DNA from: a virus
Virus genome (UHGV): UHGV-0036853
Direction: 5' to 3' (one strand)
Length of the DNA stretch: 64,000 nt
The translations under genes were made by a program, and so were the position numbers. Of this stretch, positions 15,835 to 16,743 are shown piece after piece (position 1 is the first letter of the stretch; every line of letters begins with the position of its first letter). The notes under the pieces were generated by a model. That model was not told where the DNA came from, did no database searches, and was given only the letters and a program-made list of their open reading frames with translations.

Positions 15835-16743
15835 ATGATTGGTAAGTTGTCTGATTCTTTGATTGAAAATAAATACAACGAATTTAGAGAAGAAATATCT
15901 TTACTTTTTGACTATTTAAATCAGATAAATGATACAACAAAGAAAAATATAAAACGTCTTCTAAAAGAAGTGGAGTATGCACAGAATCCAGATACTATTA
16001 TTAATATTAATGAAACTATTAAGATTAAGTGTGGCACAACGTTAGCTCGCCATTTATGTTCAAACCCATATACAGGTTCAACATTAGAGATAGGTAACAG
16101 CGCCATTGATTTAGAAGAAAAGATAAGATTGTGTAATGTTTTGAAGAATAAACAATATCAGTGGGTTATTACTGAAGCCTATGAGTTACTGGAAGACTAT
16201 ATTGAGGCAATATATGTCTATACTGTATGTGTTCGAAATGATTTCTGGTCCTCAAGTAATTTTGGTAAGGTTGAAGATGATGACATTGGGAAAGGGGAAG
16301 TTTATTACAAATTATTAAAAGCAAAAAGTAACCCATCGAAAAAAATAATTAAAATTTTCAGAAATAAAATACCTGGCTTCAAAGAGATAGAAATAAACAA
16401 CAAGATTGGTAAAAACTATCGCTTTAACATCAAGCTAATTGAACTACTAAGACATACAATAGTACACAATAGTGGACGATTCAATGATACAGAAAAATTT
16501 ATAAATAAGGTTTTAGATGAATCTGAAATAAACGGTAAGAAAAGAGTTATTGGAGAAAGAGCTGTTAGAAGTTACATTGCTAAAGTGCAAGAAGATGATA
16601 TTGTAATGCTCTTAGAAAGACCATCTGAAATTTTTGGTTCTTTTGGTGGTTATTTTAACAGAGCAAAATTTTTACTAAGTGATATTTTAGAATACTCACT
16701 AATCATTAAAGAAGAACTAAAATCATATCTAGGCAATCATTAA
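15835..16743 (+). CDS. hypothetical AT-rich protein with an Rx4H (HEPN-like) motif; candidate Abi-type RNase
   Basis: 302 aa; Lys/Asn/Ile-rich composition unlike neighbours; motif LLRHTIVHNSG; own terminator. Confidence 0.6.
   Translation: MIGKLSDSLIENKYNEFREEISLLFDYLNQINDTTKKNIKRLLKEVEYAQNPDTIININETIKIKCGTTLARHLCSNPYTGSTLEIGNSAIDLEEKIRLCNVLKNKQYQWVITEAYELLEDYIEAIYVYTVCVRNDFWSSSNFGKVEDDDIGKGEVYYKLLKAKSNPSKKIIKIFRNKIPGFKEIEINNKIGKNYRFNIKLIELLRHTIVHNSGRFNDTEKFINKVLDESEINGKKRVIGERAVRSYIAKVQEDDIVMLLERPSEIFGSFGGYFNRAKFLLSDILEYSLIIKEELKSYLGNH

Follow-up and report, generated by a model that had tools for sequence, protein, structure and literature searches.

HepS, encoded by the Gifsy-1 prophage of Salmonella, is a partner-less HEPN abortive-infection (Abi) protein that stays inactive until triggered, whereupon it cuts tRNAs in their anticodon loops (PMC13043305). 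Chromosomal integrons have been validated as a source of single-gene defence cassettes, among them the solo HEPN-like Esos of Vibrio cholerae, which provides phage resistance accompanied by growth arrest or cell death (10.1101/2024.07.02.601686). Meanwhile, AbiD/AbiF systems need a conserved upstream noncoding RNA (ncRNA) antitoxin (PMC13064643), and PrrC and RloC are HEPN enzymes that cleave tRNA (PMC3710099). Here we describe an open reading frame (ORF) with an ATG start that encodes a protein of 302 amino acids (aa) at 15835-16743 (plus strand) in a 64,000-nucleotide (nt) stretch of the virus genome UHGV-0036853, hereafter the window, which we classify by similarity as an SSU5-like phage-plasmid. 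An original prediction, made from the nucleotide sequence alone, had read the product as a candidate Abi-type HEPN RNase paired with neighbouring phage tRNAs and a P4-like integrase. On balance, we favour the reading that it is a stand-alone RNase of the HEPN superfamily, carried in a horizontally acquired, self-transcribed cassette and acting as a single-gene anti-phage defence of the abortive-infection type.

The HEPN superfamily is defined by an Rx4-6H motif that closes helix-3 and extends into the loop before helix-4, with a polar residue (N, D or H) after the arginine and frequent inserts between helices 2 and 3 (PMC3710099). HEPN families also commonly have an upstream conserved acidic residue near the active site, often as Ex3[KR] in helix-2 (PMC3710099). 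Dimerisation that brings two such motifs together and metal-independent cleavage of RNA to 2',3'-cyclic phosphate ends are further hallmarks of the superfamily (PMC3710099). In the 302-aa protein the motif falls within LLRHTIVHNSG (residues 204-214), with R206 encoded at 16450-16452 and H211 at 16465-16467. Taken alone, this match does not exceed chance: the composition of the protein predicts 0.55 occurrences of Rx4-6H, and the pattern is present in 29 of the 60 window ORFs of at least 100 aa. Its weight comes from conservation and structure, and the signature is meaningful because the family keeps it.

The family is much larger than a word-indexed homology search revealed, which retrieved 7 clusters only. 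An exhaustive profile search recovered 399 representative clusters (defined at 50% identity), 305 of them at E<=1e-10, from Proteobacteria, Campylobacterota, Bacteroidota and other taxa. Nearly all of these relatives are ~290 aa long and align end to end. An alignment of 137 sequences, made up of the query and 136 full-length representatives at a median of ~25% identity to it, revealed three invariant residues, E117, R206 and H211, and a set conserved in at least 90% of sequences, namely N105, Y108, W110, Y127, W138, E186, N189, H207, V210 and G214. Position 207 is H in 97% of the alignment and N in most of the other sequences, and the pattern R-[HN]-x3-H is kept in all 136 full-length representatives. 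G214 is conserved in 99% and E186 in 92%, the latter forming E186-x3-K190 in the query. By conservation and position in the model described below, the candidate Rx4H catalytic motif R206-H207-T-I-V-H211 is encoded at 16450-16467, and E117, the upstream acidic residue, at 16183-16185 (both plus strand).

An AlphaFold2 model computed from 6 sequences was poor (predicted local distance difference test score, pLDDT, 62.8) and was not used for conclusions. The model from the 137-sequence alignment reached a pLDDT of 94.1 and a predicted template modelling score (pTM) of 0.90. It starts with an N-terminal helix (2-50) and a beta-hairpin (69-91), followed by a long helix (93-133) bearing N105, E117 and Y127, and by shorter helices. 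A helix spanning 195-212 ends with R206 to H211 and is followed by a loop (213-218) containing G214 and by a helix (219-229); beyond it are further helices and a small beta element (248-257), and the model closes with a helix at the C terminus (276-301). The first 92 residues (15835-16110, plus strand), which hold the N-terminal helix and the hairpin, are less conserved than the core and may be an oligomerisation or sensor module. The predicted helical HEPN-like core (aa 93-302; 16111-16740, plus strand) bears all the invariant and near-invariant residues.

These features agree with the superfamily definition in several respects. A polar residue follows the arginine of the conserved Rx4-6H motif across the 137 sequences, the motif lies where helix-3 ends and the loop starts in the high-scoring model, and the four-helix up-down core resembles solved HEPN domains. 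Two upstream acidic residues, E117 and E186, are conserved, although E117 is located in the first long helix and not in an obvious helix-2. The model is also compatible with inserts between helices 2 and 3. Comparison of the full-length model with PDB by Foldseek gave no significant match because the long helices dominate the model. Thus, the protein very probably belongs to the HEPN superfamily, a confidence that we temper because designed bundles, PorM and dynamin stalks score as well as HEPN domains in structure comparison.

Curated resources do not recognise these proteins. The 302-aa query had no match in Pfam at E<=1, none in NCBIfam and none in PADLOC-DB v2.0.0 at E<=10, and its only match in PHROGs was phrog_35492, to which no function is assigned. 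The Pfam HEPN families covered were PF05168, DUF86, Abi_2, AbiU2, Abi_C/AbiJ, HEPN_AbiV, RiboL-PSP-HEPN (PF18735), Swt1, Apea, MAE_28990, RnlA/LsoA and others, and neither the query nor the scan of the 137 sequences reached the gathering threshold of the curated ones. That scan gave a sole HEPN-type match, to PF05168 in one member (E = 0.0037), and eight members examined individually matched no HEPN family in Pfam even at E<=10. The PADLOC scan of the same sequences returned scattered weak matches, the best recurrent one being to Csx1/Csm6 (CARF+HEPN) in 2 members (E = 0.0033). Family profiles built from 6 and from 137 sequences found no HEPN entry among PDB sequences; their matches to LkcE, SNAP-25 and CmlS were rejected as spurious. 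UniProt names one member, A0A923KM28 from Undibacterium, a 'RiboL-PSP-HEPN domain-containing protein', a label that was not reproduced by the current Pfam model. By these searches the family is a large, uncatalogued one, invisible to Pfam, NCBIfam and PADLOC.

The original prediction had derived the HEPN assignment from the fit of LLRHTIVHNSG to Rx4-6H. The motif is there and the assignment is very probably right, but what carries it is the conservation of R206 and H211 and the model, not the fit itself. The prediction would have been abandoned had homologues lacked the motif, and all of the full-length representatives retain it. Of the checks it had proposed, structure prediction yielded a model with the motif at the HEPN helix-3/loop position, whereas searches with HEPN and Abi profiles returned nothing for the query.

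Among the described systems, HepS is the closest functional analogue. At 218 aa, HepS is shorter than our protein, whose model has an extra long N-terminal helix and beta-hairpin. The HepS structure (PDB 9oik) was not retrieved when all PDB sequences were searched with the family profile at E<=10. In terms of architecture, the protein is also reminiscent of AbiD/AbiD1/AbiF (Abi_2) and of RiboL-PSP-HEPN proteins, with which it shares a length of ~300-350 aa, AT-rich genes, a HEPN core and an R-[NH]-xxx-H motif. The Abi_2 group and RiboL-PSP-HEPN are themselves distantly related to each other (PMC3710099). Genes for AbiD, AbiD1 and AbiF confer Abi phenotypes from mobile elements, and the cassette gene is likewise borne by a mobile element. 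Unlike members of these two groups, neither the query nor the eight examined members, A0A923KM28 included, match Abi_2 or RiboL-PSP-HEPN in Pfam, and both groups are absent from the 25 most-matched Pfam families in the 137-sequence scan. Further differences are that no conserved upstream ncRNA antitoxin of the AbiD/AbiF kind was found by sequence at 39 family loci, or by Rfam for the cassette, and that no fusion or operon with an endoribonuclease L-PSP or ParB was seen at family loci.

Other groups are more distant. The MNT-HEPN proteins (HepT/MntA), which are type II/VII toxin-antitoxin toxins, and the minimal HEPN domains PF05168 and DUF86 are ~120-140 aa long and always paired with a nucleotidyltransferase antitoxin, whereas our protein has 302 aa, carries additional elements at both termini and lacks a conserved MNT neighbour; the weak PF05168 match mentioned above concerns a single sequence among the 137. 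Unlike the PrrC/RloC anticodon nucleases, which bear an N-terminal ABC-ATPase regulatory domain and are linked to a restriction-modification system, it has no ATPase domain (by Pfam and in the model) and no conserved restriction-modification neighbour. Esos of V. cholerae is similar in being a solo HEPN-like integron cassette, as is the member of our family from Vibrio furnissii. Esos and the present family are probably different families because no V. cholerae homologue was retrieved, either with the family profile or in a Vibrio-seeded search.

The V. furnissii gene provides insight into whether the family acts alone. It is located on chromosome 2 as a single-gene integron cassette (locus 8001-8912) bounded by attC-like repeats: at least 15 copies of an attC/VCR-like repeat occur at cassette spacing, stopping at the start of the gene and resuming at its stop. 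The same array also holds DUF4238, MazG, SHOCT and DJ-1 cassettes. A copy in V. crassostreae (locus 8001-8891), 88% identical to that of V. furnissii, stands in a different setting: genes for an SMC/AAA_21 ATPase and a 261-aa product lie upstream of it, and the island also encodes an FRG protein, a group II intron reverse transcriptase and an integrase. A single-gene cassette together with a second Vibrio setting indicates that the gene moves, and presumably works, alone.

The wider neighbourhoods are consistent with a gene that has no partner. Across 43 loci from GTDB genomes, no neighbour family recurs beyond near-identical strains, and an ORF ends within 50 nt upstream of the family gene in 7 of 39 loci. 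Since AbiD/AbiF- and AbiV-type HEPN toxins depend on an upstream RNA antitoxin (PMC13064643), we searched the upstream regions for one. The unrelated family loci (39 in total) had no common upstream sequence and no recurrent tandem repeat, and the cassette itself gave no Rfam match and no repeat array.

What does recur around the relatives is defence genes. Within three genes on either side of chromosomal relatives we found mad3 (four times) and mad8 (three times) of the MADS system, AriA/AbiL-like ATPases (three times), and PD-T7-1, PD-T7-5, PDC-S15/FRG, PDC-S09 and NsnB (twice each). Other near neighbours are nSTAND NTPases, MNT nucleotidyltransferases, Bro-N proteins and integrases. Association with defence islands and with cargo hotspots of mobile elements is therefore observed for this family. 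The member from Undibacterium jejuense (locus 8001-11752) exemplifies the latter, as a P2-like prophage carries it between tail gene S (gpS) and baseplate gene V (gpV). In P2 itself, the Z/fun accessory locus occupies this S|V interval. A defence hotspot within the P2 tail genes has been described (PMC13586616). The cargo block beside the U. jejuense member also contains a 311-aa orphan, a Dam-type methyltransferase and a Com-like zinc ribbon.

The gene studied here likewise occupies a cargo site. The window region shares 98% identity with Escherichia phage CMS-2020a and is close to phage Cyrano; its resemblance to Klebsiella phage-plasmids and Salmonella phage SSU5 is weaker. Homology to Cyrano ends at 15661 and restarts at 16746; hence we delimit an accessory cassette, or moron, of ~1.08 kb at 15662-16745 (plus strand), extending from the glutaredoxin start codon to a terminator that the elements have in common. 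Alleles with 60% and 57% protein identity are found in exactly the same slot of other E. coli elements, and an allele with 38% identity at the equivalent position in the Klebsiella element pJN2-26. Against the 60% and 57% alleles, the flanks have 95-100% nucleotide identity and the cassette (~15680-16740, including the promoter region) 62-77%.

Querying with both flanks revealed that the slot is alternatively filled by a 389-bp insert of the Gp49 family (PF13876) or by a cassette of ~1,450 bp. The latter carries a 420-aa orphan on the same strand and with the same 175-nt spacing from the glutaredoxin gene (WP_052923433.1 in E. coli plasmid pG749_2, locus 2136-3398, plus strand; GC content 0.30-0.34), which occurs in many sister phage-plasmids. 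This orphan has no Pfam or PADLOC match, and homology to the HEPN family was rejected (hhalign probability 0.1%); it is another candidate defence or cargo gene.

By analogy, the slot is built as a swap hotspot holding a moron, comparable to the defence hotspots of P2 and P4. At the P2 Z/fun and cos-proximal loci and at the P4 hotspot, unrelated and often AT-rich cargo is likewise swapped between core genes (PMC13586616), and there too the backbone stays nearly identical around the swapped cargo. The difference is that none of the three occupants of the present slot has a proven defence function. To place this in context, the recombinase/helix-turn-helix (HTH) backbone was found in 252 of 5,426 complete E. 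coli genomes. The cassette was present in 30 of these genomes (~12% of backbones), always on plasmids of 106-120 kb, with 19 copies at ~98% and 11 at ~69% nucleotide identity. PLSDB added 27 Klebsiella, 1 Citrobacter and 1 Pseudomonas plasmid, all non-mobilizable. To our knowledge, the glutaredoxin/tRNA-Ser slot of SSU5-like phage-plasmids has not been described previously as a defence hotspot.

Within the window, the cassette differs sharply from its surroundings. Compared with the other non-overlapping ORFs of at least 100 aa, the HEPN gene has the lowest GC content of all 60 (0.29 against a median of 0.47), and its product the highest K+N+I content (31.1% against a median of 16.6%), with I at 11.9%, K at 10.6% and N at 8.6%. 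GC content is 0.29-0.31 across the gene and cassette and ~0.45 in both flanks. The HEPN ORF and an HTH repressor-like gene are the only plus-strand genes that we deem credible in a minus-strand block of ~50 kb. A Shine-Dalgarno sequence (GAGG, 15826-15829, plus strand) is read 5 nt before the ATG. Further upstream, a consensus scan revealed a candidate sigma-70-like promoter, TTGACT-16 nt-GATTAT, at 15753-15780 (plus strand; 9/12 matches), which may drive the HEPN gene; promoter-like sites in the cassette region are not in excess over shuffled sequence. Downstream, a terminator scan scored on the minus strand located a GC-rich hairpin, AAAGGGGC-TTCG-GCCCCTTT, at 16749-16768. It is flanked on the plus strand by an A-run upstream and by TTTG...TTTT downstream, and it is common to Cyrano and to the other cassette alleles. 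This hairpin is predicted to be a bidirectional intrinsic terminator between the cassette and the minus-strand tRNA transcript.

On one side the cassette is preceded by a tyrosine recombinase (PF00589; 14100-15203, minus strand) and a glutaredoxin gene located between it and the HEPN ORF (15416-15661, minus strand). On the other side are tRNA-Ser(tga) (16923-17009, minus strand) and a cluster of tRNA-Thr(tgt), tRNA-Tyr(gta) and tRNA-Asn(gtt) (17678-17924, minus strand). The position given by the original prediction, between integrase and tRNAs, is thus accurate, and so is its description of a Lys/Asn/Ile-rich, AT-rich ORF unlike its neighbours, the ORF being an extreme outlier. Its label of a P4-like integrase could not be established, as the recombinase matched Phage_integrase and, below threshold, Phage_int_M only.

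Two other variable regions were observed in the element. A second variable slot, between recombinase and glutaredoxin (15204-15415), has no credible ORF in the window; sister elements have a YafO-family toxin and a 182-aa ORF there, and Cyrano a 184-aa ORF (loci L046 4497-5452 and L001 3972-4526). A second AT-rich block (53861-57662, plus strand, GC content 0.35-0.40) is possibly another accessory region, and its ORFs at 54394-54936, 54964-55383 and 56508-57158 (plus strand) have no Pfam or PADLOC matches.

Collectively, Abi-type defence is the best-supported function of the 302-aa protein. We postulate that, during residence of the element as a plasmid, the gene's own promoter would drive synthesis of the protein. 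Its long N-terminal helices may assemble a dimer or higher oligomer in which the site formed by R206, H207 and H211, together with E117, is held inactive. Infection by a competing phage would then, via some trigger, activate the protein, which would cleave RNA (candidate targets being tRNA, rRNA or mRNA) without metal, leaving 2',3'-cyclic phosphate ends. The resulting arrest of translation would abort the infection and protect both the host population and the resident phage-plasmid. Of the original Abi-type RNase proposal, the HEPN identity is very probably right, the defence role is the favoured reading, and the pairing with tRNAs and integrase is not supported.

Several points weigh against a defence RNase. 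The searches of Pfam, NCBIfam, PADLOC and PDB provide no sequence-level link to a curated HEPN family, a defence model or a solved structure, and we found no published work or experiments on family members in the literature. The proposal also does not explain how a solo toxic RNase stays silent. The promoter is a consensus match, and expression in the plasmid state is an assumption. Finally, the defence-neighbourhood signal is a qualitative enrichment, its counts having no matched background.

The question of silencing leads to an alternative that we consider unlikely, namely that the protein is an addiction toxin that stabilises a low-copy plasmid prophage by post-segregational killing and is kept in check either by an antitoxin that has escaped recognition (a small RNA or peptide) or by regulation in cis through its own mRNA. 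The element is indeed kept as a plasmid only, its backbone being plasmid-borne in every E. coli genome that carries it and chromosomal in none, and the YafO-type toxin-antitoxin (TA) toxin of sister elements sits in the neighbouring variable slot. AbiD/AbiF- and AbiV-type HEPN proteins are, moreover, type III TA toxins with RNA antitoxins (PMC13064643). The mRNA of the present allele is also predicted to fold back on itself. A 5' arm in the 5' UTR and start region, covering the spacer after the Shine-Dalgarno sequence, the start codon and the first 6 codons (15800-15854, plus strand) is complementary to a 3' arm in the last ~18 codons (16687-16738, plus strand), in a duplex of -38.8 kcal/mol, as against -18.4 +/- 3.4 in shuffled sequences, 0/300 of which reach it. 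In the minimum free energy structure of the full-length cassette mRNA there are 41 long-range pairs, and the probability that the start codon is paired is ~1.0. Translation of hok mRNA is inhibited by a fold-back, which this start-codon-occluding structure resembles.

However, the fold-back is confined to the lineage of the present allele: it is unchanged in an allele at 96% identity, partial in that at 60% and absent at 57% and 38%. It is also missing from 39 other family loci; z averages -0.4 over 40 loci of the family, the present allele being the sole strong outlier (z = -4.6), and we rejected the fold-back as a family trait. Its relevance to the HEPN gene is uncertain, and we give it little weight. 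Addiction is also at odds with the missing partner, as the 39-43 loci offered no conserved ORF, upstream sequence or tandem repeat and the cassette no Rfam match, with the ~88% of the same backbones that lack the HEPN gene, and with relatives that are mostly chromosomal and include a lone integron cassette. It should be noted that TA and defence roles are not mutually exclusive.

The gene could instead serve the phage itself, its RNase degrading host RNAs or immune signalling molecules during lytic growth of the element, as counter-defence or for host takeover. The gene is phage-encoded and stands beside phage tRNAs that could replace cleaved host tRNAs, its alleles evolve fast, as expected on either side of an arms race, and SSU5-group elements carry some anti-defence genes (10.1101/2025.09.12.675607). 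Distribution makes this improbable, since the family is mostly chromosomal: 43 loci come from bacterial genomes (several within prophages), compared with 9 viral contigs with a relative among 2.9 million, none of them from an evidently virulent phage. The relatives occur among defence genes and in an integron array, and the HEPN gene has its own terminator and runs on the strand opposite to the replication/structural block.

It is also quite unlikely that the protein is no active nuclease, being either a helical bundle that looks like HEPN or a non-catalytic HEPN protein with a role in nucleotide binding, scaffolding or dimerisation, as AbiA. Such a reading would agree with the failure of profiles to match HEPN families, and the HEPN domain of AbiA is reported to be enzymatically inactive (PMC13064643). 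Yet HEPN domains that have lost catalysis typically lack the motif (PMC3710099), whereas here R206, H211 and E117 are invariant, and H207 nearly so, at ~25% identity, a pattern that points to catalysis and not to packing. In addition, the motif is positioned exactly at the helix-3-to-loop transition.

A more elaborate scenario, which we consider very unlikely, is a self-sparing Abi system. Here a HEPN anticodon nuclease would destroy host isoacceptors, the divergent, nuclease-resistant Ser, Thr, Tyr and Asn tRNAs of the element would sustain its own translation and lytic escape, and the hok-like fold-back would limit basal toxin. If true, a competing phage would be starved while the phage-plasmid keeps translating. 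Against this, the tRNAs are older features of the backbone, and members of the family are not as a rule accompanied by tRNAs. The backbone tRNAs are kept in elements without the HEPN gene (Cyrano and the Gp49-insert and 420-aa-cassette variants), and tRNA-Ser is common to P1/D6-type phage-plasmids, which lack the gene. Any tRNA within 6 kb was found for only 3 of 40 chromosomal relatives, and tRNA linkage was rejected as a family trait. Other accessory insertions in SSU5-group elements are also located near tRNA loci (10.1101/2025.09.12.675607). The adjacency of gene and tRNAs is best explained as a preferred cargo site, positional and not functional, and the pairing of HEPN gene with tRNAs and integrase that had been proposed originally is not supported. 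Alleles settled in the slot might exploit the adjacent tRNAs, but no observation speaks for it.

For the same reasons (tRNAs retained in gene-less SSU5-like and P1/D6-type elements, few relatives near a tRNA, other SSU5 cargo at tRNA loci), an anticodon nuclease coupled to the adjacent Ser/Thr/Tyr/Asn tRNAs, whether as a defence against them or with them as nuclease-resistant replacements, is very improbable, even though the 38% Klebsiella allele also lies beside tRNA-Ser/Asn, the tRNA-Ser of the element differs from that of the host, and the HEPN enzymes PrrC, RloC and HepS cleave tRNA (PMC13043305, PMC3710099).

The tRNA region has features of its own. Directly 3' of the minus-strand tRNA-Ser lies a 20-nt inverted repeat (16843-16862 / 16901-16920; 95% complementary, 38-nt loop), which could be a processing or termination structure of the tRNA transcript; the region 16818-17019 is ~81% conserved in the Klebsiella phage pJN2-26. 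Between tRNA-Ser and tRNA-Thr, a GC-rich (~0.52) segment of ~660 bp (17010-17677) has no Rfam match, and ~490 bp of it (17170-17658) are absent from one sister element. In Cyrano, tRNA-Ser and tRNA-Thr are 9 nt apart and tRNA-Tyr is missing. Positions ~17335-17693 are 92% identical to the upl/plp region of phage P1, and 16900-17693 are 94% identical to D6/P7, similarities that suggest that SSU5-like and P1/D6-like phage-plasmids have exchanged DNA at tRNA loci.

The single-gene HEPN defence that we favour is not new as a concept, since solo HEPN Abi proteins, HepS among them, are already known. What is probably new, as judged from sequence comparison, is a solo-HEPN family absent from the catalogues, distinguished by its N-terminal extension of helix and hairpin and found here in a swap slot of SSU5-like phage-plasmids that had not been described before. 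If this reading is correct, a widespread family of single-gene HEPN defences would be added to those described, and the 'hypothetical protein' entries of hundreds of genomes would become annotatable. As a compact, partner-less and presumably trigger-activated putative RNase, the 302-aa protein is tractable for the study of how solo HEPN proteins are silenced and of what they sense. Meanwhile, the glutaredoxin/tRNA-Ser junction would be a defence-type swap slot, which would help in approaching the other orphan cargo that it holds. Clinical E. coli, Shigella, Salmonella and Klebsiella commonly carry SSU5-like phage-plasmids, and the slot would also offer a handle on how these plasmid prophages shape the phage susceptibility of their hosts.

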